From: Hormiphora californensis
Taxonomy: Eukaryota > Animalia > Ctenophora
DNA length: 64,000 bases
Direction of reading: 5' to 3'
Assembly: GCA_020137815.1 (NCBI GenBank)
Contig: CM035351.1
Coordinates: forward strand, 9,914,896 to 9,978,895
Notes under the pieces: generated by a model
What the model saw: only the letters and a program-made list of their open reading frames with translations
Databases searched by the model: none
What the model was told of the DNA's origin: nothing
Part shown: positions 11,552 through 63,504 of the stretch, piece after piece
Numbering within the stretch: position 1 is the stretch's first letter
How the letters are laid out: every line of letters begins with the position of its first letter
Made by a program: the position numbers and the translations under genes

Positions 11552-11723
11552 CAGTTGGACCCCGATTTAGGGACACCCTCGGGGGAAAGGCTCTTGTCCA
11601 CTAAATCGGGGTGTCCACTAAATCGGGGTCAAATAAGGTTAATTTCCTATATCGGGGGAAAAAAATCCTGTCCCTAAATCGGGGTGCCACTAAATCGGGG
11701 GCCCCTAAATCGGGGTCCGACTG
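11552..11723. mobile_element. TA-target CAGTYGGACCCC MITE
   Basis: TIRs and TA flanks as at 775. Confidence 0.85.
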
Positions 11724-12750: not shown

Positions 12751-13861
12751 GGGGTGTGTTATTTTTTCAATTCCTAATTTAATTCAAAATTTTACTTGGT
12801 ACAGTCGGACCCCGATTTACCGGGCCCCGATTTACCGGAACCCCGATTTACCGGGAGGATAAACTTCCCCCGATATAGGAAATTAACGGTATTTGACCCC
12901 AATTTACCGGGCACCCCGATTTACCGGGGTCCGACTGTATTGGGTTAAATGAGCTCCTACGATCATTCTAAAACATTTTATCACAAATTTTTGGCTCTAC
13001 CATGGCCCAAATATGTTGGCACGAGCTATGCCCATATATGGGCATATTCATATCAAAAAGTCTGTTTTAGGGCGTTATTTCGAACAAAATACACATATCA
13101 ATCGTCTCGTGACAACTTATACGACTGTTACTTTCAGTTTGAGCCTTCAGATATCCACTTTATGAACAAAAATAAAAGTTTTTCTCCCTTTTTTTTCTTG
13201 CTAATTTTACCAACTTGCAGAATCGTGGGGACGAATTTTAATTTTTTTAAAGTTTTTTCTTGGTGGAAAGCAAATTTTGGTTGTAATCGACTAATTTTGG
13301 CCTGCGGAACACGATCCCGTTCAAGAAAAAGATCTCAAAATTTAAGAACATGTCCAAAATGAACATTCTTTGTCAAAAATGAACATTTTTTGTCAAAAAT
13401 GAACATTTTTAGGTCAAAAATGAACTTTAGCATCATTTAATGATGCATATCAATTCCTGTCAGTTTCGAGGTGCTGAACACGATCCTGAACATAAAAAGT
13501 TGATATCAAGAACATGTCAAAAACTGGTGAAAACCACACATATTTCCCTATTTTTACCATTTTTCGCGGCCCTGTAGTTGTTAGGATCATACCTACAGCC
13601 CTTCTTATACAATGGGGTGACGAGTGATTCTTTCCAAGGATAGCACTGATTCTGGAGACATTGGTTAAACAAGTTGGCTGTCGCCTCCATGACTTCTGTA
13701 CTGCTTGCTTTCAGGAACTCATTGGCAATTTGATCCTCAGCTACAGCTTTTCCGTCCTTGAGTCGCGATGCCAACGTAACTGACAAACACTATCTCGATT
13801 CTGTTTTGCTGATGTGATAGAAAATTGTCCATAGTTTCACATTAGCTAGATACTGAATGGA
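12751..13861 (-). mobile_element. Copy of the GGGTGTGCTATTT TIR element, interrupted by a MITE (12802-12937) and an RT fragment
   Basis: reverse complement of 23096-23886. Confidence 0.75.
13568..13775 (-). pseudogene. LINE reverse-transcriptase N-terminal fragment
   Basis: LKDGKAVAEDQIANEFLK...WKESLVTPLYKKGCRYDPNNYRA, typical non-LTR RT domain 0/1 motifs. Confidence 0.85.
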
Positions 13862-16348: not shown

Positions 16349-17992
16349 TACTTACTTGATACTTGGTACGGTCTCCTCAATCATTCGAGTGGCCGGCTCC
16401 AAGTATCCTCGCTCGTAATGACGTGAGCTGTCTCCACTCATTTCTGTTCTCTGCAGTGTTAGTAATTGCACGGAGAGACTGAGATTGACCCGTAGCGTCT
16501 CGATAATCATTCAGCACACAGGAGGACCAGGTTTTACGCGGTCTTCCTCTGGAACGTCTCCCATGACTAGGCACCCAGTGGTAGAGTTTATTGGGCACCC
16601 TACCCTCAGGCATTCTAATCAGGTGTCCAAACCAGCGGAGTCTCCCATTGCCAATGAACTTCGAGATTGGTTCTATCCCCGCCCTCTACAGTACCTCCCT
16701 GTTAGATACTCTCCTAAACCACTGTATTCTCAGGATTCTACGCAGGCACCGTTGATGGAACGCCTCCACCCGGCGATCTTGGACCTGAGTAGTTGTCCAG
16801 GCCTCACAACCATAGAGAAGAACTGTCAGAACAGCAGCTCTGTATATCCTGATCTTGGTACAGGTCCTGATGTTACGGTTGTACCAGATCCTACAAAGCA
16901 TACTGAATGCACTGTAAGCCTTCCCTATCCTGATACCAAGCTCCTTGTCGATGGTACCGTCAGAGGACAACGCCGATCCGAGATAGGTAAAACTGGAAAC
17001 CTGCTCAACCGGATTACCCTCCACAGAGATGCTGACCGTATCCGCCTCTGAAAATGGGCGCTGGCTAAGACCCTTTGAAAAAGCCACAACTTTGGTCTTC
17101 TTCGCATTAATCTTCAGACCAGCGTACCCTGCGTATTTTACCAGCAAATCTGTTGACTCCTGGAGCCCTTCCTCAGTATCATCCATTACAGCCATGTCAT
17201 CAGCATAGTCGAGATCCATGATCCATTCCCCACCCTCATCACTCTCAGCGCCGTGAAGAGTGAGACCCCTGGAGACAGTCTTGTTGGACTCAGCAAGCTG
17301 AGCCGCCCAGTTAATCACGATGTTGAAGACTGGTGGACCCTGAATGTCGCCCTGACCGGTACCACTGAGGACACTGAACCAGCTGGAGAGCTCCCCGTCA
17401 TGTTTCACTGCACTCATAGTACCGTCAAAGAATGCTCGAATTATCCGGACATACTTCTCTGGAAGACCATAATGGCGAAATGCGGCCCAGATAAAATCCC
17501 TGTTAATACAATCGAATGCTGATTTGAAGTCAATAAAGTTTATATACAACGGTACATTATATTCTATACACTGATGGATGATGGTACGGAGGGAATAAAT
17601 CTGATCCACACAGGACCGGTTACGTCTGAATCCACACTGATAATCTCGAAGTGCCAATTCAAGACCAGAAGACAACCTGTTCAGCATAATTATCTGGAAC
17701 AGCTTGGAAGTGGTAGATCGCAGAGTGATGCCCCTATTATTTGAGCACACACTGGCGTCACCCTTCTTGGGAATCACCGAGATGACACCCTTTAACCACT
17801 CCTCCGGGACCTTCTCCTCCCTCCAGACTCCACCAAACAGATCCACAAGGGGGCCAACAAGACCGGACGAGCCATACCGTAGCTGTTCGTTCGAGATCCC
17901 ATCAACGCCAGGACTCTTATGGTTTTTGAGCCTCTTCAGTGCCACTAAAACTTCTCCACGAGAAGGCGGAGGATCATCCTCACCAAGATCCT
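16349..17992 (-). mobile_element. 5'-truncated RTE-clade LINE (RT ORF 16686-17945, frameshifted C-terminus to 16377)
   Basis: KSPGVDGI, FIDFKSAFD, GQGDIQGP, YADD, YLG, LLYGCEAW, GRPRKTW; short 3'UTR with AAGT-type repeat tail. Confidence 0.92.
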
Positions 17993-20900
17993 CACTTAGA
18001 GCTTAGATTTTGATACCAGCTGATAGAGGATCACTAAATTTTCCGTTTGGCTGGCGGTTGGCTGGCACCACGTGGGATTAGGGGTTTAGGTCGTCGTGGG
18101 AGGTCGACATTGGTCGCGTTCGATCGGGCTCGATGAGGTGATCAAAAGCTAGTGGGCCAGACCTTGGCCCCACCCCGTTCTTGGCTTATTGGGCTTTTTC
18201 GGTTTCCCGCCAAAATATTTTCCCGCCATATATATGCTTTATTTTTTTGCCCCTGCACTGCCACTGCACATTTTTTTAATTGCTTATAATTAATTTGATA
18301 ATCAATTTTGAATATTCCCACTTTTTGTAGACCTTTCTATATGCTTTAACTACATTACTGCAAAATTTTAGGCCGTTATTTATAGCAGAACGGAAAATAT
18401 TTTCAAATGCTCAGGGGCAATGCTCAGGGGCACCAGAAAAATGTCCATTTTTTAATTGCTTATAATTAATTGGATAATTAATTTTGAATATTCCCACCTT
18501 TTGTAGACCTTTCTATATGCTTGAAGAGCATTCCTACAAAGTTTCAAGTCGATATTTCAAGCAGATCGGGAGATAATTGCTGCTCAGGTGCCCCTGGGCC
18601 ACTTTTGTTAGTGCGAGGGCAATTTTAAAATTTTAATTGCTTATAATCAATTAATTAAGTAAAAAATCAAAAATCAGGCTCCTTGGTGACTCTTAGTTAT
18701 ACCACTAGAACATGCCTACAAAGTTTTAGATCGATATGTCAAACAGTGTGGCCACAGTTTGAATTTTAAAATTGCCCAGGGGCAGTATTTTCAAATGCTC
18801 GGGGGCAATGTTCAGGGGCACCAGAAAATGTCCATTTTTGCATGCCTATAACTCATTGATTACTTAATTTTGACTATTCTAACTTTTTTGTAGATCATTT
18901 TTTATGCTTGAAGAGCATTCCTACAAAGTTTCAAGTCGATATTTCAAGCAGATCGGGAGATAATTTCGGCTCAGGGGCAATGCCCAGGGGACAGAACACC
19001 CCATGCTCAGGGGCACGGTGCAGGGGCTACTTTTTAATTACATATAATTAATTTATTAGGCAAAAAATCAAAAATCTGGCCACGTTATGACACGTAGTTA
19101 TACTACTAGAACACGCCTACAAAATTTCAGGTCGATATCTCAAAAAATTTGGCCACAATCACTGCCTGAAATTTGCCCCCCCCCCCCCCCCCCCCCGAAA
19201 AAAAGACCTACGTTTGTATATATGATCGCAAAAGGCAAGCTTCCCCTCGTTCGACCCGAAGTTGGGAGATTCGTCGAAACAGCAACCTTCAGGCTGTTAA
19301 AATATTTTTTGATGCGCGGCGGCCTGTTTATTATAGTAGGGTCGGTTGTGGGAAGTTGGGTCTGGAATTTTAAATTTGACTTTCTGATATGATTAGGGAC
19401 TCTATAAAAAGTCCAAAGTACCATCCCACAGGTCTCTACCACCCCCGGCGCGGTTCACTAATTAGTCGTAATTATGTAATTTATGACGTTATCGCCAATT
19501 AGCACTAATAATGCCAGTTCCTGATCACTTAGAGCTTAGATTTTGATACCAGCTGATAGAGGATCACTAAATTTTCCGTTTGGCTGGCGGTTGGCTGGCA
19601 CCACGTGGGATTAGGGGTTTAGGTCGTCGTGGGAGGTCGACCGGTCGACATTGGTCGCGTTCGATCGGGCTCGATGAGGTGATCAAAAGCTAGTGGGCCA
19701 GACCTTGGCCCCACCCCGTTCTTGGCTTATTGGGCTTTTTCGGTTTCCCGCCAAAATATTTTCCCGCCATATATATGCTTTATTTTTTTGCCCCTGCACT
19801 GCCACTGCACATTTTTTTAATTGCTTATAATTAACTTGATAATCAATTTTGAATATTCCCACTTTTTGTAGACCTTTCTATATGCTTGAACTACATTACT
19901 GCAAAATTTTAGGCCGTTATTTATAGCAGAACGGAAAATATTTTCAAATGCTCAGGGGCAATGCTCAGGGGCACCAGAAAAATGTCCATTTTTTAATTGC
20001 TTATAATTAACTAGAAAGCCCATTAAAGTCCCTCACCCCCCCCCCCACCGTCCCCATGTCTCTCTCCCCCTCTTACTCTTGATATCTCCATGTCGGGGTA
20101 AAGAATACGGAGGTTGGTAGAGTGGTAGAGCGCCATGTTGATAAACATCAATGGAAATCCCGCTGATTAACATGTAGAATCAGGTGATAAAGATCCGTAT
20201 AATTGTAGCTGTGTAGAGAATCAACGGGGTACGTAGGTAGAAAGGCTTTGGCAATCATGGCGGCCCCAGTAGTAGATCCCAAAACACCACAGGAACAACA
20301 CAGGAACACGCAACAAACAACCAACAACATGCACGTGCAGTATCCCCCCTCCAATACCCCTTCCAAGGCACCTCCTTGGCAACCCCCCTCTATTTGCACG
20401 TGATGATAGGTCATACTCCTCCTCATCACGACGTTCATTTGCAAATTATAATCTCTACTAGAAAGCCCATTGAATTCCTACAATTGCCCCCACCCCCACC
20501 CGTCTCTATGTCCCCCACCCTCTTACTCTTCGACTCTCCATGTCGGGGTAAAGAATACGGAGATTTGTAGTGCTAGAGCGCCGGTGATAAACATCAAGGG
20601 AAATCCCGCTGAATAACATGTAGAATCAGGTGGTAAAGATCCGTAGAATTGTAGCTGTGTAGAGAATCAACGGGGTACGTAGGTAGAAAGGCTTTGGCAA
20701 TCATGGCGACCTCAGCAGTAGATCCCAAAACACCAACAACAACAACCACAGGAACACGCAACAAACAAACAATAACATGCACGTGCAGTATCCCACCTCC
20801 AATACCCCTCCCAGGGCACCTCCTTGGCAACCCCCTCCATTTGCACGTGTGGATAGGTCATCATACTCATCACGCCACGCATTTGCAAATTATAATAAGG

Positions 20901-22024
20901 ACTAGAAAGCCCATTGTTAAGTCCTACAACACCCCTCCCCCCCACACGTCTCTATGTCTCTCTCCCCGTCTCACTCTTTGTCTCCCTATGTCGGGGTAAA
21001 GAATACGGAGGTTTATAGTGGTAGAGCGCTGGAGATAAACATCAAGGGAAATCCCGCTGAATAACATGTAGAATCAGGTGATAAAGATCCGTAGAATTGT
21101 AGCTGTGTAGAGAATCTATGGGGTATGTAGGTAGAAAGGCTTTGGCAATCATGGCGGTAGATCCCAAAACACCACGAAACACCTGCACAGGAACACGAAA
21201 CAAACAACCAACAACATGCACGTGCAGTATCCCCCTCCAATACCCCTCCCAAGCCACCTCCCAGGGCAACCCCCACTATTTGCACGTGTGGATACTACAT
21301 CACCACCATCACGCCACGCATTTGTACTTTATAATAAGGATTGGATAATTAGTTTTGAATATTCCCACCTTTTGTAGACCTTTCTATATGCTTGAAGAGC
21401 ATTCCTACAAAGTTTCAAGTCGATATTTCAAGCAGATCGGGAGATAATTGCGGCTCAGGTGCCCCTGGGCCACTTTTGTTAGTGCGGGGGCAATTTTAAA
21501 ATTTTAATTGCTTATAATTAATTGATTAAGTAAAAAATCAAAAATCAGGCTCCGTGGTGACTCTTAGTTATACCACTAGAACATGCCTACAAACAGTGTG
21601 GCCACAGTTTGAATTTTAAAGTTGCCCAGGGGCAGTTTTTTCAAATGCCCGGGGGCAATGTTCAGGGGCACCAGAAAATTTCCATTTTTGCATGCCTATA
21701 ACTCATTGATTACTTAATTTTGACTATTCTAACTTTTTGTAGATCTTTTTTATGCTGGAAGAGCATTCCTACAAAGTTTCAAGTCGATATTTCAAGCAGA
21801 TCGGGAGATAATTTCGGCTCAGGGGCAATGCCCAGGGGACAGAACACGCCATGCTCAGGGGCAGGGTGCAGGGGCTACTTTTTAATTACCTATAATTAAT
21901 TAATTAGGCAAAAAATAAAAAATCCGGCCACGTTATGACACGTAGTTATACTACTAGAACACGCCTACAAAATTTCAGGTCGATATCTCAAAAAATGTGG
22001 CCACAATCGCTGCCTGAAATTTGC
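17993..22024. mobile_element. Tandem pair of a ~1.2-kb non-autonomous element (Helitron/Helentron-like)
   Basis: 17993-19175 recurs near-identically from 19525 to ~22024 (minus the 20011-21340 insert); internal subrepeats; class assignment is inference. Confidence 0.65.
20011..21340 (-). mobile_element. Head-to-tail trimer of a ~445-bp non-autonomous Helitron
   Basis: minus strand a|TCCTTATTATAA...GGGCTTTCTAG|t with no TSD; empty site ataattaa|ttggat at 18469/18470; units start 20011, 20458, 20902. Confidence 0.85.
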
Positions 22025-24318: not shown

Positions 24319-26681
24319 CTGTAAAACTAGATATTTTCGAGGCCATTAATTTTCGCGATTCGATCAAAATTGACTATTTTCGCGATTTTAATTTTCGCTA
24401 ATCCCACTGCTACGATTACGTACGATAATGCCTACGGTCAATAATGCCTACAGGGGTTATAGGCATATATAATTGGGTGTAGGCAAAACCGTCAAAACGG
24501 CAATAATGCCTACGGTGGCAATAATGCCTACGATAAAGTACGATAATGCCTACGATCAATAATGCCTACATTATTGATAATTGGGTGTAGGCAAAAGCGT
24601 CAATATTATTGTTGATATGGCGATAATGCCTACAGGGGTGATTGGGTGTAGGCAAAAGCGTCAAATCATCATATCCCGATTGGTAACGTGACCCTGAGGG
24701 CGGCACCAATACGATATAGGAGATATGGCTCGTTAGTTATTGGAGTAAACCGATTGACATGAGAGCTCCTCTAATCGGTAAGGCTCATGTCGGATTGGAT
24801 ACGTGATATGGGCGGTTCATCTAACGGCTTATTACAACGATTAGAGGAGCTTTAGCGGCAGGACACGTGATAAGATGCACCGATTCGAAACACGATTCGA
24901 ACGTGGCTGGTATACCTTAGAAACATTTCATAACTTTTTTTGCAAAATTTTACAGAATCATTGTCAATGCTTTGATCGATGCTCCCCGTAAATTTTCAGA
25001 GAAAACATTATTTTGAAATTTTGATACTTCCTCACCCCGCTTAGGGTGCCCAGATTCGGCATGGTATCACATATCGGTTCGTTTCGAACCGTCTAATTAG
25101 TGGCAGGGCACGTGATAAGATGCACCGATTCGAAACACGATTCGAACGTGGCTGGTTCGGGGCCTGGCAAGGCCCCCCGACCCGAACATAACCCAATCTC
25201 AACCCATCCCCCTAAAACAACGGGGCCGAGCCGACAGGCCCTCTATAACAGATGCCAAAAAAAACCATAAAACCATAGATATTTTTAGAGTGAAAGTTTT
25301 GAAGCCCCCTGAAGTAGTAGAGAGGTGTTCTATGGCTCGTTGGAAAACCTTAGAAAAAGTTTTTACAATTTTTTTTGAATTTTTTAAGTTTTCTATTTCT
25401 AATGACAGAAGAAATGATCATATTGTCATCAATAAATGTATACTATGTATTATATATACAGTTAGAGGTGTCTTGGTATAGAATTTTGGACAAAAGTATG
25501 ATTTATGGGTCAAATATGCTCTACCCCGATATACCGGGCACCCCGATTTACCGGGCAAAATGGCTTCCCCCGAGGATCCCGGTAAATCGGGGTCCGACTG
25601 TATTGAGAGAATGAAAGATTGCATTGCAGTTGACAACTCGCTTAGGATATCTCGATTCGGTACATATATGTACCGAATCGAGATATCCTTAGTAGTAGAG
25701 TCGATAACTACATCGACCTCTCCCAATTGTTCCAGTTTTTGTCACATCTGTTTGGAGCCTCGACACGACCTCTAAACAGGTGTTACTTTTTCACAAACTG
25801 TCTTCATCTTGGTGTAATCAGCAGTTGAAATGTTGCTGATCATAACAAAAACCGAACTATTTTTTTTCAACTTGGGGTAAAACCATGGGTGTCAAAAGTT
25901 AGCTCTAGGTCCCCTGAGTAACCATCCGGAGACTCTAAGAGATATTTCAAGCCGTTCTCCCGTAATCATTAATCCCGGTGGAGAAAAAATACAATGAGTA
26001 AAAGTAACACCTGTTTAGAGGTCGTGTCGAGGCTCCAAACAGATGTGACAAAAACTGGAACAATTGGGAGAGGTCGATGTAGTTATCGACTCTACTATAG
26101 CGAGTTGTCAACTGCAATGCAATACTGAGGTGGAGGGTAGGCAAAACTGCTCGTAGGCATTATTGTCAACATCAGTGGTAAAATCACAGTTTTGCCTACA
26201 TGGTAGGCATTATGTACCGTAGGCAAAACTGCGGTTTACCCCCCTGGTGTTGACGATAATGCCTACAAGCAGTTTTGCCTACCCTCCACCTCTAATTAGA
26301 TGTTTTAGGGTGTAGGCATTATTGACCGTAGGCATTATTGTATGCTACCACTGCTACCCCCATTTCACGGTCCTAGTCTATTGTCTAATTACGCCAAGAG
26401 TGCAGTCATCATTGCCATGAGACACCAGACCTGCTTGGCGTAGACCAATGAAATGTGAGCATTTTCTCATTGCTGATTGGCTCTAAGAGATTTCTGATCT
26501 TATGAACCGATTGTCGTTGACTTAGTACTAAAAGTAAAAAATGTGTCATCCTGAAATAATTTGCACGAGCTTTCTGTAAAAAAATCGTCCAAAATATTTT
26601 CGCGGAATTAATTTTCGCGGATTTTCCAGCCAAAAATAAAGAGCGAAAATAAAAATCTCACGAAAATTAGTAGTTTTACAG
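24319..26681. mobile_element. TA-target MITE (CTGTAAAACTA TIR) containing further insertions
   Basis: ta|ctgtaaaacta ... tagttttacag|ta; empty site visible in the opposite foldback arm near 22295. Confidence 0.85.
24414..26348. mobile_element. Mutator-like element with 9-bp TSD and ataatgcctac subrepeats
   Basis: TSD cactgctac at 24405-24413 and 26349-26357; TIR tacgataatgcctacggtcaataatgcctac. Confidence 0.7.
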
Positions 26682-27905: not shown

Positions 27906-27946
27906 TTCTCAGGATTTTTGTAAACAGGTATCATAATTATGCAAAT

Positions 27947-28690
27947 AACGGCTAAACGGTGGGAGATACGACTTTTTGTCCGGGGGACGACCCCCCATAA
28001 ATCGACTATTCTGCGTCGAAGCATGTCCATGAAAACTTTCTAGGACCAGCTGAAGTGGAAATATTCAGAATATGCACTAAATCATGAATCGGCGCATAAA
28101 TATGCACATAACAGCTAAACGGTGGGAGATACAACTTTTTGTCCGGGGGACGACCCCCCATAAATCGACCATTTTGCGTCGAAATATGCCCATGAAAACT
28201 TTCTAGGACTAGCTGAAGTGGAAATGTTCAAAATATGCACTAAATCATGAATCGGCGCATAAATATACACATAACGGCTAAACGGTGGGAGATACAACTT
28301 TTTGTCCGGGGGACGACCCCCCATAAATCGACTATTCTGCGTCGAAATATGTCCATGAAAACTTTTTAGGACCAGCCGAAGTGGAAATATTCAGAATGTG
28401 CACTAAATCATGAATCGGCGCATAAATATGCACATAACGGCTAAACGGTGGGAGATACAACTTTTTGTCCCGGGGATGACCCCCCATAAATCGACTATTC
28501 TGCGTCGAAATATGTCCATGAAAACTTTCTAGGACCAGCTGAAGTGGAAATATTCAGAAAATGCATAAATCATGAATCGGTGCATAAATATGCAAATAAC
28601 GGCTAAACGGTGCAAGATACAACTTTTTGTCCGGGGGACGACCCCCCATAAATCGACTATTCTCCGTCCAATGCGACCAATGAAAAGCCG
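27947..28690 (+). repeat. 163-bp tandem repeat, ~4.5 copies
   Basis: aacggctaaacggtgggagatac at ~27947, 28110, 28273, 28436, 28598. Confidence 0.92.
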
Positions 28691-30042
28691 CTATCATAAG
28701 TAGAACTTGAGATATTCAGATATGCATATTGTCATAATTATGTGCATTTAACTCCTTAACGGTAAAAGTTAGAGAAAATTGTCCCGAGTAAAACCCCCCA
28801 TAAATCGAATATTTTGCGTCGGTTAGAACCGTCGATTTATCTCTAGTATGTGTCATTACCGAGATATTCATAAATTTATACATAAATTATGCATAATCTC
28901 TAATCAAGATGCCATATAGCCTACTACACACAGAATAGCTAGAGTAACCTAAGTTTAAAATTTCAGGGCTCTAGCTTTAGCCGTTTTTCCAGGCGAATGT
29001 TTGCAAAATGGTGGTGCCTTGTATGTATAGTGTCTACACAGGGTGTGTTTGGGACCCCCCTCGTAACTTTTGAACGAAACGACCGATCCACTTGAAATTT
29101 ATATCACTAACAGTAATGGTAGAGGTACCTATAACTACAAAATTTCAGCTCGCTAGCTTATCGGGAACATGGTCAAACAGGCGCTCAAAAAGGGCGTTTG
29201 TCGCATCCGTATGGTATACTGCACTGGCCCCCACTGGGGGGGGGGGGGGGGGGGGGGTAAATGAACTTCTCGCGCCGGACTTAATTGTTTCAGAGTCATG
29301 TTTTGTTATGACTGGGGATATTTTTAATGCTGGGGGCTGTGCCCCCAGACCCCCCTAAGGCCACGGGGCACTTGCCAGTGCAGTGATATAGACGCTTCAC
29401 TGTGTAACACTTGTAGCCCGAACCATACTAGCTAGAGACTTGAATTAAGTTTTATCCGTTAGCAAATCGTTCGGGGCATGCATTAGTTAAAGTTTCAAGT
29501 GAAAATGTCCACTATGACGGGCGTAATGACGTCAGAAAGTGACGTCACAAAGTGACGTCATTGAAAAAATATCAGACCAAATATTTTCAAACGCCTCTAG
29601 CACCCTCAAGAAGTATTTTGATTCCTGATTTGACGAAAAATCGTTAGTGGCAAATTGTCTGAACTTTCAGAAATTATATTGTAAATTTTTCTAACTTGTC
29701 ATTTTCAAACCTTAAAACGCGTCGGAACTCAAAAATTTGATGTTAAAATCCACATAAAAATTCACATTTAGTGCAATAACTTCAGTTCTTGACTACCATG
29801 CCCTTTAAAACTTTTCACACTTTTAGTGCTTCATAGGCCTAATAGTCTGTTATAATTTTCGACGTCATTTGTGACGTCACGTGTGACGTCACGACGTCAA
29901 AACGACGTCAAATTTTGAAAATTTCGTCAAATCAGTTTCCCACAACCCAGGATATATTTGAATTACATTTGAACACTTTAGTTGACAATTAGCTTAGTTG
30001 TTTGAGGTCATAAATGACCTCAAACGACCAAAAAAGAGTTCA

Positions 30043-31130
30043 AATTTAGAGCAAAAACTAATTGAAATTAATTCGCCAGAAAGGTGGCCCATTTTGAACT
30101 TACTCCTTCATTTCCGTCACCTTTGAGTTGAAGGCGGAAAAGTTTACGGATACCTCAATGTCTTTGAAGCCTCAACTCAAAGGTGACGGAAATGAAGTAC
30201 AGTCGGACCCCGATTTAGGGACCCCCGATTTAGGGACACCCCGATTTAGGGACAGGATTTTTTTCCCCCAAAAATTTTTGAATTTTTTTTGGGAAATTTT
30301 TTGTGAAATTTTTCAAAAAGATTCCAGCCATTTCCGAATCGTGTTTCGAATCAGTGCATCTTATCGCATGTCCCTCTGCTAATTAGACAGTTCGGAACGA
30401 ACCGACACGTGATCCCCATGGTGCCCATTGAATCACAAGTTCACCAAGGTCCAAGTGTCAAAATTTCGATTCGATGGGGATCACGTTTCGATTCGTTCCG
30501 TCTAATTAGCAGTAGGACATGCGATAAGATGCACCGATTCGAAACACGATTCGGACGTGGCTGGTATACCTTTAAAAAAACTTATAACTTTTTTTGCAAA
30601 ATTTTACAGTACGATTGTCAATGCTTTGATCGGTGCTCCCAATAAATTTTGAGAGAAAAAGTTATTTTGAAATTTTTATACTTCCTCACCCGCTTAGGGT
30701 GCCCCGATTCGGTATGGTATCACGTATCGGTTCGTTTTGAACCCGCTAATTAGACAGGATATCCAGTAAGTTGCACCGATTCGAAATACAAACCGGACGG
30801 GCTGGTATAACTTAGAAAATTTTCCACTTTTTTTTGAAAAATAATTATTTTGTATTTTTCTTTTTCTAATCAGAAATGATCATGTCATCAATACATGAAT
30901 ATTGCATATAATAACAGTTAGAGGTGTCTTTAGTCTTAATAATATAGCATTTTGGGCAATAAAATAGGTTTTTTGGGTCAAATATGGTTCACCCCGATTT
31001 AGTGGACACCCCGATTTAGTGGACAAGACCCTTTCCCCCGAGGGTGTCCCTAAATCGGGGTCCGACTGTAGTAAGTTCAAAATGGGCCACCTTTCTGGCG
31101 AACTAATTTCAATTAGTTTTTGCTCTAAAT
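30043..31130. mobile_element. Nested TIR elements: outer ~60-bp IR, hairpin 30106-30197, long CAGTCGGACCCC element 30200-31068
   Basis: atttagagcaaaaactaattg / caattagtttttgctctaaat; TA-flanked inner element. Confidence 0.75.
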
Positions 31131-31137
31131 ATATATA

Positions 31138-31309
31138 TAGTCGGACCCCGATTTACCGGGCCCCGATTTACCGGAACCCCGATTTACCGGGAGGATAAAC
31201 TTCCCCCGATCGAGCAAATTAACGGTTTTTGACCCCGATATACCGAGCAACCCGATTTATCGGGCAAAACCCTTTCCCCCGAGCAACCCGGTAAATCGGG
31301 GTCCTACTG
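31138..31309. mobile_element. CAGTCGGACCCC MITE, ccgatttaccggg subfamily
   Basis: matches 12802-12937. Confidence 0.8.
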
Positions 31310-47486: not shown

Positions 47487-47664
47487 CAGTCGGACCCCGT
47501 ATTAACGGCACCCTCGGGGGAAAGGATTTTGTCCGTTAAATCGGGGGTTGGTGTCCGCTAAATCGTGGGTGAAATAATGTTAATTTCCCATATCGGGGAA
47601 AGATTATGCTGCCGTTAAATCGAGGTGCCGCTAAATCGGGGACCGTTAAATCGGGGTCCGAATG
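47487..47664. mobile_element. CAGTCGGACCCC MITE nested in a (gattcgatc)-rich element (47332-47750)
   Basis: TA flanks and TIRs. Confidence 0.75.
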
Positions 47665-48884
47665 TAATTCGATTCGATCTTCAAGCGATCAAAAAGTTTT
47701 CGATTCGATCTTTGGGCGATCAAAAAATATCGATTCTATCTGGTATGGATCTTTGAGCTCAAAATACTACTAGACGGTGAATGGCGAAGGCATCAATATA
47801 ATACAATATGCACATATGTGTATAAACCTCAAAGTGATCGGCAAAGAATAACAATTAGCAGCCCAATGAGTAATTGTCGTTGAGTAAATCGAGTTGTAAC
47901 AGTTTTGACTTTTGCTTGCAGTTACACATAATGCTTGTACATAGTTACACACTATATGAAACCCGATAGCTGATTTATCAGTCGTTTGAACATTTTCGCG
48001 CGCATCGATAACTGCGAGCTGGGGATTTTACCACCTGCTCGCTATTTATCAGACCAGTACCCTTTTCACGCGTTTCTTTCATTTCATAAAATGGTGTGGA
48101 ATTTCCAAGTAATGAAAATGCGTGTAAACACACAGTTCTGTCAATAACAGAGAGGGGAACACATCTGCAACACTTTTCAATGTTCTCTCTCTCAGTCTCT
48201 CATCAAGAGGCAAAATAATCACATTCCATTCGTTTTCTCTCTCTCATTCTCTCTTTTACGTTCAATATCTCTCATGTGTGTATTGGCCCCATCTTGCTCT
48301 CTCTTACTCAAATATGTAAGGAACAGTTGCAAACTAGGTGCCAGTTAGTCTACACACACAGTTGTGGGAACGTCTTTTGACTATTGCCAGCAGTCATTGT
48401 GGTTTCACTTGTGTTGTGTCTCTATGCGTGTAATAACATCGGTTTCATAAATATGAAGGTTTGTTAGCCTATCGCGTTATAGGTTTAAATCCACCTCCCT
48501 CACCCTCGGACTAGATGCCCTCGGGATCGGCGTCGGGATTTTTAAACCAGTTAATCGCCCTGCCGGCGATTTCAACTCTGATTGGCTGTCCCCAGCTTGC
48601 GCTGTGAACAGCCAACTTGATAACGCGCCAGTCTACAAACGTTCATAGTTCATTTAGCGTATAATGTAGATTCGTTCTGGGCAGGTTTTAGAACACATGG
48701 ATAATTGGAATTGTCTTCTGAACGAAATTCGGATAGGGGGAAGGGGGTCTGAGAAATTCGGACAGGCTTGGACAAAGGGGAGGGAGGGGGGGGGGGTAAA
48801 AAAGGACTAAAATCATGGACCTCCTTTTTGAATCGCCCCTAACATTACTACAACTCATTATAGGTGTATTACATTGCACTGGCA

Positions 48885-50021
48885 ATGTTCAATGAAACAA
48901 TAACGGAATTTACAACATCGTGGTTTGATTTCTTTAACAGAACCGAGGGACCTACTACTGAAGAAGCCAACACTGATGAAGTCTTCCCGTTTGACTGTCT
49001 CCCGGGAGGAGCTGCTGTGATTTGTGTTGTAGTGGGAATCATACTAAACACTGCTGTCCTCCCATACTTCATTTCCAAAATCAAACAAAGCAGAACTCTG
49101 TCCAATTTGTTTTATACCATCATCTCAGCGACAGATCTGGTGGTTTCCATTCTAACAATATTTTACACAACCACTCTCTTCACCCAACAGCCAGGTGCCT
49201 TCAAATCAGTTAAATTCTGTACTGCCTGGTCTGTCCTCTGGGGTGTTTTCACTAAACTCACAATCCTCCTTGTCTCTCTCCTGTCAATCTATAGGACAAT
49301 CCTGATACTCGACCCTCTCCAGAGCACCATCTCCTTCCGACCCTCTCGTACCTTCCTTGGGGTAGTTGCTGTGGGCAGTGCAGCGGTGTTTTTAGCAGCA
49401 GAAACGGTGCCGTTATGGTTCAGTGGACAGATAATGTGGTATTACGATTGGTTTCGACATAGGTGTGAGTGGTATGAAGTAGGCCCACACTGTGAGGTTC
49501 ATGTACCATTCGCCGGTATTTATGTGTGGAATGCGGTTACCATTGGTCTCCCACTGCCCGTGGTTACCATAGCAACAAGTCTGTCCATATATGGTCTGGT
49601 AGGGAGATCCTCCCTAAACCATTACCGGGAAAGCAACACAGTTCTTCTTTTCTCTGCGGTCTACATGGTCCTCAATATTCCCGTGTTTGTGTACCATGTT
49701 GTCATGGTGATAGAATTCTCCACGGGGTGGGAGGCCAAGTTGCTCGATTTTGATCATCCTAATTACTACTTTTTCACATTTGTGGAGCTGATTGTGGTGT
49801 CACTTAACAGCGCCGCTAATCCCATGATATATCTGGTGAGAATGACAGAGTTGAGGAGATTTATGAAGGAGCAGTACTTTGGAAGGTTGAGGAGACTGGT
49901 GACAGCAGATCATCATATCACCATGGTATCACGGAATGCTACAAAGTCTACCAGTGTTACTGCAGCTGGTGGTGGAGCGGGGGAGAGTTCAAATAATTAT
50001 GTTGCCAGTTCCCGAATATAA
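48885..50021 (+). CDS. Intronless class A (rhodopsin-like) orphan GPCR, 378 aa
   Basis: 7 hydrophobic segments; GIILN (TM1), SATDL (TM2), C..W and SIYRT (TM3), NSAANPMIY (TM7); N-glycosylation sequons NET and NRT; ATG at 48885. Confidence 0.92.
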   Translation: MFNETITEFTTSWFDFFNRTEGPTTEEANTDEVFPFDCLPGGAAVICVVVGIILNTAVLPYFISKIKQSRTLSNLFYTIISATDLVVSILTIFYTTTLFTQQPGAFKSVKFCTAWSVLWGVFTKLTILLVSLLSIYRTILILDPLQSTISFRPSRTFLGVVAVGSAAVFLAAETVPLWFSGQIMWYYDWFRHRCEWYEVGPHCEVHVPFAGIYVWNAVTIGLPLPVVTIATSLSIYGLVGRSSLNHYRESNTVLLFSAVYMVLNIPVFVYHVVMVIEFSTGWEAKLLDFDHPNYYFFTFVELIVVSLNSAANPMIYLVRMTELRRFMKEQYFGRLRRLVTADHHITMVSRNATKSTSVTAAGGGAGESSNNYVASSRI

Positions 50022-56280: not shown

Positions 56281-56550
56281 AACACAGTCCTGAGGGATCT
56301 GTTGCAGAAGAAGCCCCAGCTGTAGCTGATGAACCCGCTTGCTGAAGTCCCTGTAGCTGAACCTGAGGAACCAGTGACTGAAACCTGAGGTAGCAGCTGA
56401 GGAACCAGTGGCTTGAACCTGAGGAACCAGCGACATGAACCGAGGCAGCAGTTGAGGAGCCTGAGGTTACTGAACCTGAAGTTGCTCCTGAGGAGCCTGA
56501 GGTCACTGAACCTGAGGAACCAGCCGAAGAAGAAGATGGATCTGGTGAAG
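56281..56550 (+). CDS. Glu/Pro/Ala-rich repeat exon (indel errors) of the gene hosting the tandem array
   Basis: ccacAG|..EEAPAVADEPA..EEPEVTEPEVAPEEPEVTEPEEPAEEEDGSGE|GTAGG. Confidence 0.65.
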
Positions 56551-56644
56551 GTAGGATAACACAATGAACTCGACAAAATTTTATTTTACTTACTACAGTA
56601 AGTAAAATTAAATTTTATTTTGTAAAGCAATAATCACCGTTGTC

Positions 56645-59600
56645 AAATAAATCGGGGTGTTCCGAGAGACTGATCCTAAACTGAGCCAATACACACAGCT
56701 AGAGCGGAGAGTCACCGTCATGGTGTGCACTATCACCAGGGTCACATATACAGTCGATGGGGTTGACTATACTCTCAACGCATCTAGCCTCTGCCAACAT
56801 GTCATGGTGTTGCACTGCCAGGAACCCTCCAACTCCGATTCCTTGTTTAACTAGCCGTACAGCAAGGATCTCGGCTGGATTCGTCTCAGACTAGGCACAT
56901 ATTCCAACACGATAGTAGCAGGAGAGATCAACACTTATACCAAGCACACAGGGTAGAAACAATCCTTGTGTTCTGGATAAGATAACATTTTTCTCTAGGT
57001 AGTGTGTATCGGACATCAGTAGGCCCCATTATAATTGGTATTTAACACAGTCAAACTCGAGAGAGTACAATGTTATTGATACTTGATTGATAAATCGGGG
57101 TGTTCCGAGAGACTGATCCTAAACTGAGCCAACTACACACGCTAGAGCGGAGAGTCACCGTCATGGTGTGCACTATCACCAGGGTCACAATATACAGTCG
57201 ATGGGGGTTGACTAAAACTCTCAACGCATCTAGCCTCTGCCAACATGTCATGGTGTTGCACTGCACGGAACCCTCCAACTCCGATTCCTTGTTTAACTAG
57301 CGTACAGCAAGGATCTCGGCTGGATCGTCTCAGACTAGGCACATATTCCAACACGATAGTAGCAGGAGAGATCAACACTTATACCAGCACACAGGGTAGA
57401 AACAATCCTTGTGTTCTGGATAAGATAACATTTTTCCTAGGTAGTGTGTATCGGACATCAGTAGGCCCCATTATAATTGGTATTTAACACAGTCAACTCG
57501 GAGAAGTACAATGTTATTGATACTTGATTGATAAATCGGGGTGTTCCGAGAGACTGATCCTAAACTGAGCCAATACACACAGCTAGAGCGGAGAGTCACC
57601 GTCATGGTGTGCACTATCACCAGGGTCACAATATACAGTCGATGGGGTTGACTATAACTCTCAACGCATCTAGCCTCTGCCAACATGTCATGGTGTTGCA
57701 CTGCACGGAAACCTCCAACTCCGATTCCTTGTTTAACTAGCCGTACAGCAAGGATCTCGGCTGGATTCGTCTCAGACTAGGCACATATTCCAACACGATA
57801 GTAGCAGGAGAGATCAACACTTATACCAAGCACACAGGGTAGAAACAATCTGTGTTCGGATAAGATAACATTTTTCTCTAGGTAGTGTGTATCGGACATC
57901 AGTAGGCCCATTATAATTGGTATTTAACACAGTCAACTCGGAGAAGTACAATGTTATTGATACTTGATTGATAAATCGGGGTGGTTCCGAGAGACTGATC
58001 CTAAACTGAGGCAATACACACAGCTAGAGCGGAGAGTCACCGTATGGTGTGCACTATCACCAGGGTCACAATATACAGTCGATGGGGGGTGACTATAACT
58101 CTCAAAGCATCTAGCCTCTGACAACAAGTCATGGTCTTGCACTGCATGGAACCCTCCAGCTCCTATTCCTTGTTTAACTAACCGTACAGCAAGGATCTCG
58201 GCTGGATTCGTCTCAGACTAGGCACATATTCCAACACGATAGTAGCAGGAGAGATCAAACTATACCAAGCACACAGGGTAGAAACAATCCTTGTGTTCTG
58301 GATAAGATAACATTTCTCTAGGTAGTGTGTATCGGACATCAGTAGGCCCCATTTAATTGGTATTTAACACAGTCACTCGGAGAAGTACAATGTTATTGAT
58401 ACTTGATTGATAAATCGGGGTGTTCCGAGAGACTGATCCTAAACTGAGCCAATACACACAGCTAGAGCGGAGAGTCACCGTCATGGTGTGCACTATCACC
58501 AGGGTCACAATATACAGTCGATGGGGTTGACTATAACTCTCAACGCATCTAGCCTCTGCCAACATGTCATGGTTGCACTGCACGGAACCCTCAACTCCGA
58601 TTCCTTGTTAACTAGCCGTACAGCAAGGATCTCGGCTGGATTCGTCTCAGACTAGGCACAATTCCAACACGATAGTAGCAGGAGAGATCAACACTTATAC
58701 CAAGCACACAGGGTAGAAACAATCCTTGTGTTCTGGATAAGATAACATTTTCTTAGGTAGTGTGTATCGGACATCAGGAGGCCCCATTATAATTGGTATT
58801 TAAACAGTCAACTCGGAGAAGTACAATGTTATTGATACTTGATTGTAAATCGGGGTGTTCCGAGAGACTGATCCTAACTGAGCCAATACACACAGCTAGA
58901 GCGGAGAGTCACCGTCATGGTGTTGCACTATCACCAGGGTCACAATAACAGTCGATGGGGGTTGACTATAACTCTCAACGCATCTAGCCTCTGCCAACAG
59001 TCTGGTGTTGCACTGCACGGAACCCTCCAACTCCGATTCCTTGTTTAACTAGCCGTACAGCAAGGATCTCGGCTGGATTCGTTTCAGACTAGAGCAATAT
59101 TCCAACACGATAGTAGCAGGAGAGATCACACTTATACCAAGCACACAGGGTAGAAACAATCTTGTGTTCTGGATAAGATAACATTTTTTCTTAGGTAGTG
59201 TGTATCGGACATCAGTAGGCCCCATTATAATGGTATTTAACAACAGTCAACTGGAGAAGTACAATGTTATTGATACTGATTGATAAATCGGGGTGTTCCG
59301 AGAGAGACGATCCTAAACTGTTCTACCCTGTGTGCTTGGTATAAGTGTTGATCTATCCTGCTACTATCGTTGGAATATGTGCTAGTCTGAGACGATCCAG
59401 CGAGATCCTTGCTGTACGCTATTAACACGGAATCGGAGTGGAGGGTTCCGTGCAGTGAACACCATGACAGTTGCAGAGGCTAGATGCGTGAGAGTTATAG
59501 CAACCCCATCGACTGTATAGTGACCCTGGTGATAGTGCACACCATGACGGGACTCTCGCTCAGCTGTGTGTATGGCTCGTTAGGATCAGTCTCTCGGAAC

Positions 59601-62600
59601 ACCCCGATTATCACAAGGATCAATAACATGTACTCTCCAGTTGACTGTGTTTAAATACATTATAATGGGGCCACTGATGTCGATACACACTACCTAGAGA
59701 AAAAGTTATCTTATCCAGAACACAAGGAGTTTCTACCCTGGTGCTTGGTATAAGTGTTGATCCCTGCTACTATATGTGTTGAATATGGCCTAGTCTGAGA
59801 CGAATCCAGCCGAGATCTTGCTGTACGGCTAGTTAAACAAGAACGGAGTTGGAGGTCCGTGCACGTGCAACACCATGACATGTGTGGCAGAGGCAGATGC
59901 GTTGAGAGTTATAGTCAACCCCATCGACTGTATATTGTGACCTGGTGATAGTGCACACCATGACGGTGACTCTCCGCTCTGCTGTGTGTATTGGCTCAGT
60001 TTAGGATCAGTCTCTCGGAACACCCCGATTTATCAATCAAGTATCATAACATTGTACTTCTCCGAGTTGACTGTGTTAAATACCAATTATAATGGGGCCT
60101 ACTGATGTCCGATACACACTACCTAGAGAAAAATGGTATCTTATCCAGAACACAAGGATTGTTTCTACCCTGTGGCTTGGTATAAGTGTTGATCTCTCCT
60201 GTACTATCGTGTTGGAATATGTGCCTAGTCTGAGACGAATCCAGCCGAGATCTTGCTGTACGGCTAGTTAAACAAGGAATCGGAGTTGGAGGGTTCGTGC
60301 AGTGCAACACCATGACATGTTGGCAGAGGCTAGATGCGTTGAGAGTTATAGTCAACCCCCCATCGACTGTATATTGTGACCCTGGTGATAGTGCACACCA
60401 TGACGGTGACTCTCCGCTCTAGCGTGTGTATTGGCTCAGTTTAGGATCAGTCTCTCGGAACACCCGATTTATCAATCAAGTATCAATAACATTGTACTTC
60501 TCCGAGTTGACTGTGTAAATACCAATTATAATGGGGCCTACTGATGTCCGATACACACTAACTAGAGAAAAATGTTATCTTATCCAGAACACAAGGATTG
60601 TTTCTACCCTGGTGCTTGGTATAAGTGTTGATCTCTCCTGCTACTATCGTGGTTGGAATATGTGCCTAGTCTGAGACGAATCCAGCCGAGATCCTTGCTG
60701 TACGGCAGTTAAACAAGGAATCGGAGTTGGAGGGTTCGTCAGTGCATGCAAACCATGACATGTTGGCAGAGGCTAGATCGTGAGAGTTATAGTCAACCCC
60801 CATCGACTGTTATTGTGACCCTGGTGATAGTGCACACCATGACGGTGACTCTCCGCTCTAGCTGTGTGTATTGGCTCAGTTAGGATCAGTCTCTCGGAAC
60901 ACCCCGATTTTCAATCAAGTATCAATAACATTGTACTCTCCGAGTTGACTGTGTTAAATACCAATATAATGGGGCCCTACTGATGTCCGATACACACATA
61001 CCTAGAGAAAAATGTTATCTATCCAGAACACAAGGATTGTTTCTGACCTGTGTGCTTGGTATCAGTGTTGATCTTTCTGCTTCTATCGTGTGGAATATGT
61101 GCCTAGTCTGAGACGAATCCAGCCGAGATCCTTGCTGTACGGCTAGTTAAACAAGGAATCGGAGTTGGAGGGTTCCGTGCAGTGCAACACATGAATGTTG
61201 GAGAGGCTAGATGCGTTGAGAGTTATAGTCAACCCCATCGACTGTATATTGTGACCTGGTGATAGTGCACACCATGACGGTGACTCCGCTCTAGCTGTGT
61301 GTATTGGCTCAGTTTAGGATCAGGCTCTCGGAACACCCCGATTATCAATCAAGTTAATAACATTGTATTCTCCGAGTTGACTGTGTAAATACCATTATAA
61401 TGGGGCCTACTGATGTCCGATACACACTACCTAGAGAAAAATGTTATCTTATCCAGAACACAAGGATGTTTCTACCCTGTGTGCTGGTATAAGTGTTGAT
61501 CTCTCCTGCTACTATCGTGTTGGAATAGGGCCTAGTCTGAGACGAATCCAGCGAGATCCTGCTGTACGGCTAGTTAAACAAGGAATCGGAGTTGGAGGGT
61601 TCCGTGCAGTGCAAACCATGACATGTTGGCAGAGGCTAGAGCGTTGAGAGTTATAGTCAACCCCCATCGACTGTATATTGTGACCTGGTGATAGTGCACA
61701 CATGACGGTGACTCTCCGCTCTAGCTGTGTGTATTGGCTCAGTTAGGACAGTCTCTGGAACACCCCGATATCAATCAAGTATCAAAACATTGTACTTCTC
61801 CGAGTTGACTGTGTAAATACCAATATAATGGGCCTACTGATGTCCGATACACACTACCTAGAGAAAAATGTATTTATCCAGAACACAAGGATTGTTTCTA
61901 CCCTGTGTGCTTGGTATAAGTGTTGATCTCTCCTGCTACTATCGTGTTGGAATATGTGCCTAGTCTGAGACGAATCCAGCCGAGATCCTTGCTGTAGGCT
62001 AGTTAAACAAGGAATCGGAGTTGGAGGGTTCCGTGCAGTGCAACACCATGACATGTTGGCAGAGGCTAGATGCGTGAGAGTTATAGTCAACCCCCATCGA
62101 CTGTATTGTGACCCTGGTGATAGTGCACACCATGACGGTGACTCTCCGCTCAGCTGTGTGTATTGGCTCAGTTTAGGATCAGTCTCTCGGAACACCCCGA
62201 TTTATCAATCAAGTATCAATAACATTTACTTCTCCGAGTTGACTGTGTTAAATACCAATTATAATGGGGCCTACTGATGTCCGATACACACTACCTAGAG
62301 AAAATGTATCTTATCCAGAACACAAGGATTGTTTCTACCCTGTGTGCTTGGTATAAGTGTTGATCTCTCCTGCTACTATCGTGTTGGAATATGTGCCTAG
62401 TTGAGACGAATCCAGCCGAGATCCTTGCTGTACGGCTAGTTAAACAAGGAATCGGAGTTGGAGGGTTCCGTGCAGTGCAACACCATGACATGTTGGCAGA
62501 GGCTAGATGCGTTGAGAGTATAGTCAACCCCCATCGACTGTATATTGTGACCTGGTGATAGTGCACACCATGACGGTGACTCTCCGCTCTAGCTGTGTGT

Positions 62601-62980
62601 ATTGGCTCAGGTTAGGATCAGTCTCTCGGAACACCCCGATTTATCAATCAAGTATCAATAAACATGTACTTCTCCGAGTTGACTGTGTTAAATACCAATT
62701 ATAATGGGGCCTACTGATGTCCGATACACAACCTAGAGAAAAATGTTATTCTATCCAGAACACAAGGATTGTTTCTACCCTGTGTGCTTGGTATAAGTGT
62801 TGATCTCTCCTGCTACTATCGTGTTGGAATATGTGCCTAGTCTGAGACGAATCCAGCCGAGATCCTTGCTGTACGGCTAGTAAACAAGGAATCGGAGTTG
62901 GAGGGTTCCGTGCAGTGCAACACCATGCATGTTGGCAGAGGCTAGATGCGTTGAGAGTTATAGTCAACCCCCATCGACTG
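56645..62980. mobile_element. TSD-flanked multimeric insertion of a ~444-nt structured non-coding unit (~6 copies, inversion at ~59320, ~8.3 copies)
   Basis: AATCACCGTTGTC at 56632-56644 and 62981-62993; period ~440-444; copies differ mostly by single-base indels. Confidence 0.9.
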
Positions 62981-63090
62981 AATCACCGTTGTCCATTTTT
63001 CTTTAATCTCATCAATTCTATCCTTCCTTTCATTTAAAAAATCACCCATTCACCCATTCAAGAGCCTGTTATTTACCTACCTCACTTCAG

Positions 63091-63504
63091 AGCCACCTGT
63101 CCCTGTGGAGACTCCATCTACAGGAGAGGATGCTGAGGAGGTCCTCTCTACACCTGCCATGAGATCACCACGGACCCAATGGGCGAGGAGAGTAAGTAAT
63201 TAATTAGTAATTTCAGTTTAATTAATAAAACAGAAACATACTATACTTATTGTACATTTGGTACATCATATTTTGAGTTTATCATTATTACATTGTTGTT
63301 ATTATAATGTTTCTTAGGACGGAGCAAGTCAGCGTGGAACTGACGGCAGTACCGGTTATCTTTGGAGTCATCAAAAAGGGCCCTTACATTGTGCCCCAAT
63401 GCGCACCCAAGTGGCTAAAAACACTGAAAAAGCAGAAGTGGGCCAGCCAGTTTGCAGAGTGGACCCCGATCTTTTCCAAATTTTCTGCTGCGATCAGGCT
63501 AAAG
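63091..63504 (+). CDS. Downstream exons (63091-63191, ~63319-63504) of the Glu/Pro-rich gene
   Basis: cttcAG|(E)PPVPVETPSTGEDAEEVLSTPA..|GTAAGT, phase-compatible with the donor at 56551; frame of the next exon uncertain. Confidence 0.55.

Follow-up and report, generated by a model that had tools for sequence, protein, structure and literature searches.

The window analysed here, 64,000 nucleotides of Hormiphora californensis DNA, contains a 6.3-kb insertion block (56647-62980) built from a tandem unit of about 444 nt, the monomer. Some 14 near-identical copies (about 6 plus 8.5) are arranged in two diverging, back-to-back arms between the copies of a short target-site duplication, and the whole likely lies in a host intron:

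56551-63090, + strand: likely host intron with the insertion (GT...AG, splice-like motifs, open frames on either side)
56632-56644, + strand: target-site duplication, left copy, 13 bp; single copy in the empty-site contig
56647-59320, - strand: left arm, six units plus about 34 nt; the probable template strand here is -
59318-59323, no strand: inversion point, where the two inner (5'-truncated) ends meet with about 2 nt of microhomology; read from the sequence
59321-62980, + strand: right arm, about 8.5 units, inverted relative to the left arm; the probable template strand here is +
62981-62993, + strand: target-site duplication, right copy, from flank comparison and the empty-site contig

Neighbouring sequences in the window

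Nothing in the rest of the window matches the unit beyond 13 nt. Palindromic MITE-like elements are abundant in the window. An intronless rhodopsin-family receptor gene lies at 48864-50021 on the + strand (Pfam 7tm_1, E 1.6e-08), for which a word-based search gave no homolog at E 1e-10. Its first hit in the Atlas is a cluster in which Ctenophora is the most frequent phylum, but other phyla reach the same score of 0.96, so that this hit points to a ctenophore host only weakly. A reverse-transcriptase frame of 438 codons, LINE-like by eye, occupies 16686-18002 on the - strand, and the sequence at 17992-18469 is repeated at 19525-20010. A second tandem array (20010-21340; three copies of 448 bp, 85-87% alike) shows no homology to the 444-nt unit, no consistent ribozyme match and no clear duplication, and adjoins a locally duplicated MITE-like region. 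Another tandem repeat, of 163 bp in about 4.5-5.5 copies at 93%, is found at 27932-28821. The sequences 5819-7396 and 8088-9644 form a 1.6-kb inverted duplication (97.7% identical) that lies around a frame fragment resembling an LTR retrotransposon (7032-8439); this duplication is possibly an assembly fold-back.

The insertion and its target site

Words of at least 8 nt common to both flanks are confined to the 13-bp duplication. The empty site is present in a 504-nt contig of public run X5 (depth 349.2; two listings, merged on their equal length and depth), letters 17-172 of which correspond to 56489-56644 and letters 161-383 to 62982-63189. Because this contig passes from the left flank to the right flank with the target present once, the block is a real insertion event with a duplication of 12-13 bp. 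The target is 74% A+T, each border of the duplication has ATT either directly at it or one base away, and two bases foreign to the unit (56645-56646) separate the left duplication from the left arm. The left junction is bridged by a contig of run X1 (56350-56676), though the assembly may itself derive from X1. The inversion point rests on the assembly, with no bridging contig among those listed.

Copy number, like the inversion point, depends on an error-rich assembly in which differences between copies are mostly private deletions. Clean substitutions per full copy number 0-4 in 12 of the 13 and 10 in the remaining copy. The copy with 10 carries nine of them in a concentrated patch:

58089-58181, + strand: substitution patch, 9 clean substitutions in 93 nt, single copy

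The patch includes a variant common in public runs, and may have arisen by gene conversion, by switching of the template to a diverged copy or as an artefact of polishing. A simple fold-back artefact was ruled out for the block as a whole, the arms being out of phase and the flanks being different and joined in the empty site.

The insertion likely lies inside the intron listed above, as judged from motifs in the sequence. If so, a near-perfect inverted repeat of 2.7 kb would be present in the host pre-mRNA, together with an 8-unit multimer of the template strand. The longest stop-free stretch is 115 codons; an endless reading frame was considered and rejected, as stops recur and the closed units of 442 nt described below are not divisible by three. 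Neither insertion end has a poly(A) or a microsatellite or other short-repeat tail, and ARAGORN returned 0 genes, so the unit lacks the tRNA-like head of a tRNA-derived SINE.

Template polarity and recurrent ends

In target-primed reverse transcription the cDNA follows each flank. Here both window strands read from the flank into the strand on which the unit was originally described (the described strand below). Because of this geometry the template is probably the reverse complement of the described strand, and the outer ends of the block are probably cDNA starts. The corresponding features are as follows:

62960-62980, + strand: terminus A, AC-rich, an unpaired C-run (62966-62975), then the recurrent end (62972-62980)
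56647-56661, - strand: terminus B, another AC-rich run of C, lying 105 nt downstream of A along the template; equivalent to 62632-62646 in the right arm
57531-57635, - strand: A-B 'tail', 105 nt, within the unit originally described

The A-B spacing is 104-105 nt in all five copies measured. Only two runs of at least four C occur on the template strand, one beside A and one beside B; 12 of the 13 copies have both, and the thirteenth has one. In the predicted folds the C-run at A is unpaired with a probability of 0.94-1.0 in 13 of 13 copies, and that at B is unpaired at 0.9 or more in eight of 12; the hairpin closing the loop of terminus A has a probability of only about 0.55.

Copies in other genomes repeatedly end at these two outer ends, A and B, among the 14 loose ends listed (of 69). 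Twelve listed contigs of runs X5 and X15 pass from the unit into foreign sequence at its 3' side (a 12-letter row that merely continued the unit was dropped): eight at 62972-62980, two at 62960, and one each at 62637 and 62686. A contig of depth 2 from run X18 exits at 62819. Ends on the 5' side are scattered among the rows listed (62788, 62801, 62881, 62894 and 62945). Near B, X15 contigs end at 56647 (three contigs; in that reference the unit has its edge here), 56654, 56656 and 56663, and pieces ending at 62635, 62636, 62646 and 62650 belong to a looser cluster at 62628-62650. Summed contig depth, a rough measure that gives no copy number, climbs along the template strand in X5 and X15, and falls after A (from 83,763 to 14,541 in X5 and from 1,698 to 540 in X15) and after B (from 22,983 to 2,489 and from 1,638 to 663, respectively). 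Opposite-strand joints are also found in contigs of both runs, and thus the inversion is a trait of the family.

These ends bear on an origin by an ordinary LINE (RTE/L2/CR1/L1 type) that moved a SINE-like tandem RNA, with the inversion produced by twin priming, a mechanism known from L1 elements. The 13-bp duplication, the diverging arms and the 2-nt microhomology are all compatible with twin priming, and the fragment at 16686-18002 is LINE-like. In twin priming, however, the second priming site should vary and show homology to the target, whereas both outer ends recur across the family and neither has target homology; moreover, the ends have no poly(A) or microsatellite tail and the unit no tRNA head. 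We regard a LINE origin as decidedly unlikely.

Two other observations concern the ends. A third pair of ends, near 62686-62692, occurs in two diverged contigs with common variants (one from X5, one from X15); it lies about 45 nt past terminus B, after a word resembling that at terminus A, and possibly marks an older subfamily with its own start site. In each unit the region of terminus B (56648-56660) has a 13-nt word, TAAATCGGGGTGT, in common with the subterminal repeats of the palindromic MITE family of the window:

604-903, 11560-11715, 12810-12923, 25541-25592, 30208-30248, 30992-31301 and 47537-47656: MITE copies with TAAATCGGGGTGT

The presence of this word in both could reflect capture, a shared binding site or chance.

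The unit in public sequencing runs

The unit is present in 20 of the 24 listed runs, from 11 studies that cover two labelled organisms and marine samples, and eight of the runs containing it, from five studies, are RNA runs. Six runs were examined at contig level (X1, X5, X12, X15, X18 and X20); for X2-X4, X6-X11, X13, X14, X16, X17 and X19 the presence of the unit is known from listed shares. Each of the three RNA runs among the six, from three different studies, contains a single wrapped (closed) contig, of 438 nt in X12 and 442 nt in both X18 and X20. The monomer length of 444 nt given in the preliminary description agrees with these contigs (442 nt plus a 2-nt indel). The contigs carry no strand information; closed contigs of 438-442 nt are compatible with a circle, with a multimer and with residual DNA from a high-copy repeat. 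Summed depth in X1 is mostly 1,000-2,800 on the unit versus about 10 on the flank, a rough sign that the unit is high-copy in host DNA. Pattern scans of metagenome contigs for the unit gave 0 matches, and a scan of viral contigs gave one locus with only 18 nt in common, which we take as chance.

One alternative accepts the insertion mechanism proposed below but supposes in addition that the RNA cleaves itself and is really circular. In it, a true retrozyme-like RNA circle is cut into monomers by an undescribed or highly divergent ribozyme, ligated, and reverse transcribed six to eight times round. The wrapped contigs of X12, X18 and X20 would be expected of such a circle, as would the unit's presence in eight RNA runs of five studies, the near-identity of 12 of the 13 copies, and a predicted fold that is branched and 60-70% paired. 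The host flanks are uncovered in X12, X18 and X20, which is not evidence by itself. Against a circle, an identical closed contig would come from a tandem multimer or leftover repeat DNA, and the unit occurs at the same share (0.32-0.33) in five marine runs labelled as DNA. The diverged patch in one copy could also not have been templated directly by one circle, and neither Rfam nor ribozyme descriptors found a ribozyme (next section). We consider this alternative unlikely.

Searches for ribozymes

Rfam models gave 0 matches to either strand of the unit at the gathering score; at E values up to 10 there were two snoRNA matches (E 7.8 and 8.3). The hammerhead word CTGANGA occurs once in the whole array and is not a feature of each unit. 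A relaxed hammerhead descriptor matched in one of six dimer-strand tests versus 12 of 30 shuffled dimers, and an HDV-like descriptor in one of six versus six of 30. HDV-like, twister and hairpin descriptors, uncalibrated on known ribozymes, found nothing that recurs across copies. Near-matches to hammerhead, hairpin and pistol words noticed by eye were discarded when their helices failed. The unit may nevertheless contain an undescribed ribozyme motif.

The preliminary description had placed the unit with viroids, retrozymes and delta-like RNAs, an assignment that is not borne out: no known ribozyme was found on either strand, and the predicted fold is not a rod. Both points also weigh against an autonomous viroid-like RNA that replicates from RNA to RNA in the host and is occasionally retrocopied. 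Such an agent would suit the size of the unit, its lack of a long reading frame (at most 115 stop-free codons) and its recurrence in ocean RNA runs. The unit is, however, high-copy in host DNA, with close variants in two labelled organisms, and we find this explanation scarcely credible.

Predicted secondary structure

The unit in which a closed, rod-like or branched structure was originally proposed has the following predicted parts:

57534-57975, - strand: one 444-nt monomer with a predicted branched fold
57544-57581 with 57885-57942: predicted long stem
57582-57674: predicted arm with terminus A
57820-57864: predicted hairpin

Fourteen of the 17 words quoted for this copy are present in it; CGGAAC, CCTTGTGT and TGGATAAG are absent from it and occur three, four and five times, respectively, in the + arm. 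For mean pairing probabilities, 11 of the 13 full copies were folded as circles, leaving out the two with the most errors (n = 5-11 per pair, as words may be missing); values are given here for the described and the opposite strand. Six of the nine proposed word pairs are predicted, at 0.60-0.98 on the described strand: CTTAT:ATAAG (0.98/0.97), ACACAGG:CCTTGTGT (0.95/0.83), GCTAGA:TCTAGC (0.85/0.83), GAGAGT:ACTCTC (0.79/0.81), TGGTG:CACCA (0.66/0.48) and GAGAGAT:TTTTTCTC (0.60/0.50). The other three fail (0.00-0.05), namely AATCGGGG:CTCCGATT and GTTCCG:CGGAA (both 0.00/0.00) and CCGTC:GATGG (0.05/0.00). The best-supported long-range helix, ATACACAC:GTGTGTAT (0.98/0.99), had been overlooked. 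It connects the start of the unit with its last third, thereby joining the two halves that had been described separately, and hence the fold is multi-branched, with a central multiloop and three arms in the predicted shape, rather than a closed rod. The view that the unit is not an exact DNA palindrome, and that it belongs to an RNA-mediated, retrozyme-like element, holds. The G-U pairing noted at the same time was read on the strand that probably is not the template; its reverse complement is favoured by the geometry of the insertion, by the C-rich motifs at the starts and by the variants considered below.

As had been expected, most bases are paired (60-70% in circular folds of five copies on both strands), but the strongly negative z-score predicted against shuffled sequences did not materialize, the values for these ten folds being only -1.26 to -3.90 (40 shuffles each). 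Linear folding of the copy originally described gave z = -1.87 on the + strand (5 of 100 shuffles as good) and -3.31 on the - strand (0 of 100). For background, 24 stretches of 441 nt elsewhere in the window were folded on both strands with 10 shuffles each: 19 of the 48 folds reached z <= -2, and the other 29 lay above -1.3. Because so many background folds reach this level, the fold of the unit appears modestly better than shuffles and unexceptional in this repeat-rich genome, with the reservation that all folds come from single error-bearing copies, which may somewhat understate the true z. On its own, the A-B region gives no advantage over shuffles (z from -1.39 to +0.59 in six folds).

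We then counted, in three copies and on both strands, how 18 substitutions from public runs affect the predicted pairs. Suspected errors in the reference copy, flank rows, duplicates, the indel-linked X20 rows at 62721-62725 and the loop rows 62659 and 62660 were excluded. On the template strand the numbers that keep a pair, break a pair or are unpaired are 5/6/7, 3/6/9 and 5/6/7 in the three copies; on the described strand they are 1/8/9, 2/11/5 and 1/8/9. Six of these variants come from RNA contigs. In two of the three copies, three of the six preserve a pair on the template strand, one disrupts a pair and the other two fall on unpaired bases, while on the described strand three break and none keeps a pair. 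The variants thus lean weakly to the template-strand fold (5 of 6 informative transitions, not significant). The compensatory changes that had been anticipated are thin: two 'breaks' are partners of one pair that changed together in an X15 contig, the sole pair altered on both sides among the 18 substitutions, and even on the more favourable strand predicted pairs are lost through five or six of the others. RNAalifold on ten copies gave no covariation signal and is uninformative here, because the copies differ mostly by read errors. Selection on folding of the 444-nt unit is suggested only weakly.

The same figures could be expected of a DNA-level satellite or MITE-derived repeat, in which the fold would be a by-product of decayed inverted repeats and the contigs in RNA runs would be leftover DNA. 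The z-scores overlap the MITE-rich background, the A-B region is no better than shuffles, and the unit has its 13-nt word in common with the MITE subterminal repeats. On the other hand, a clean empty site, a 12-13-bp duplication and a polar truncation pattern are signs of retrotransposition, short copies in other genomes have foreign flanks and fixed 3' ends, and the outer ends do not form terminal inverted repeats. A purely DNA-level origin is therefore very improbable in our judgement.

Proposed origin of the element

The unit is probably the monomer of a young, multi-copy, non-coding and non-autonomous Penelope-type element, retrozyme-like without a hammerhead and with a long tail. We assign it to this type because its two internal starts (the 'tail'), inverted arms and AT-rich target match Penelope-like elements. 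The tandem units include an inverted, 5'-truncated arm, and the 3' ends face outward. The two recurrent internal 3' ends, 105 nt apart in the rows listed, have neither target homology nor poly(A), and in the predicted fold the start lies in an AC-rich stem-loop. Also observed directly are the duplication with its empty site, outer ends in common with copies in other genomes, and closed unit-length contigs with no known ribozyme.

In the proposed mechanism, transcription of the array, for example by read-through from a host gene, would yield a multimeric RNA complementary to the described strand, circularised or not. The helper would be the reverse transcriptase-endonuclease of a Penelope-like retrotransposon, likely hijacked, which would nick an AT-rich target on each strand, the two nicks lying 13 nt from each other. 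Each nick would prime cDNA internally on the RNA, without target homology, beside one of the two unpaired AC-rich C-runs 105 nt apart. The two cDNAs would extend for about 2.7 and 3.7 kb and be joined at a short microhomology. The branched fold, a modest feature, would present the C-runs. A more specific version, in which an abundant and stable comb-jelly circular RNA, seen in ocean metatranscriptomes, owes its closure to a host enzyme or to a catalytic motif not yet described and is copied round its length by a Penelope-type reverse transcriptase from the two C-rich starts, can be entertained only tentatively.

No helper element was found in the window, whose one recognisable reverse-transcriptase fragment (16686-18002) looks LINE-like. 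Compared by eye, two published ctenophore Naiad sequences have only words of up to 11 nt in common with the unit, in mixed orientations. A literature search, largely outside subscription journals, found no such element described in ctenophores.

An element that combines a retrozyme layout with a Penelope insertion signature, but has no ribozyme, bears on whether hammerheads and circles are required for Penelope-driven spread or are mere passengers. As a natural minimal template of 444 nt whose two start sites are mapped, it lends itself to work on internal initiation at both target strands. Since screens for animal retrozymes look for hammerheads, relatives without one are invisible to them; if the circular reading is true, the element would define a class of circular-RNA parasites of animals to which ribozyme-based screens are blind. 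The element also counsels caution, as closed, structured, ribozyme-less contigs in marine metatranscriptomes can stem from animal retroposons rather than viroid-like agents.

Comparison with known systems

The portions of the literature on which we draw define metazoan non-LTR retrozymes by a type I hammerhead in each unit and describe head-to-tail non-coding repeats, quoted at 150-450 bp, with circles shown by Northern blot and a proposed dependence on Penelope-like elements (Cervera and de la Pena 2020, PMC7229834; Li, Clavereau and Pollet 2026 preprint, 10.64898/2026.07.22.740005). As in those retrozymes, the repeats described here are non-coding, tandem and a few hundred bases long, with a G+C content below 50%, a target duplication of more than 4 bp, multimers and a predicted branched fold. 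In contrast, no hammerhead was found in the unit, whether canonical, minimal (variants in the part consulted of PMC4209133) or of the U3-A8 variant, and closed contigs stand here in place of circles on Northern blots. Neither two fixed internal ends nor a ctenophore case appears in the passages covered of the two retrozyme texts (PMC7229834; 10.64898/2026.07.22.740005). The element is thus retrozyme-like in its working and Penelope-like in its insertion, yet for want of a hammerhead per unit it falls outside the retrozymes.

Viroids, viroid-like RNAs and delta-like RNAs resemble the unit in size range, non-coding nature, predicted pairing (60-70%) and closed metatranscriptome contigs. The unit differs from viroids and delta-like RNAs in having no ribozyme, no rod and no frame the size of a delta antigen, and in being high-copy in host DNA with an insertion signature. 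Lee et al. (10.1101/2022.07.19.500677) left ribozyme-less circles unclassified, according to the portion of that study used here, and the 444-nt unit may be among them.

Closer parallels come from Penelope-like elements, again as described in the sections of the papers cited. The protein of Poseidon from Anolis carolinensis cuts and extends both target strands and prefers ATT (Frangieh et al. 2024, PMC11167929); its two internal starts lie in an AC-rich stem-loop without target homology, leaving a 30-40-nt tail, and its hammerhead is dispensable (PMC11167929). Naiad and Chlamys elements form inverted truncated copies with one-sided tails (Craig et al. 2021, PMC8557442), and Naiads, which lack canonical hammerheads, are present in two ctenophores (PMC8557442). 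The inverted 5'-truncated arm, the tail at one end, the two internal starts, the AC-rich loop and the AT-rich target with ATT are all features that the present element has in common with this group. It differs in having no reading frame, in a tail of 105 rather than 30-40 nt, and in two arms that are both long multimers of a non-coding unit. We draw the relationship from these insertion features rather than from any terminal-repeat homology. Non-autonomous Chlamys elements, such as MRC1 of Chlamydomonas, are likewise non-coding, Penelope-dependent and multicopy in head-to-tail arrangement, and most Chlamys elements have no canonical hammerhead (PMC8557442). The present insertion resembles the MRC1 type in being non-coding and multicopy head-to-tail; MRC1-type elements, however, have a 3' sequence in common with a known autonomous family, whereas the present element belongs to an animal host and has no known partner.
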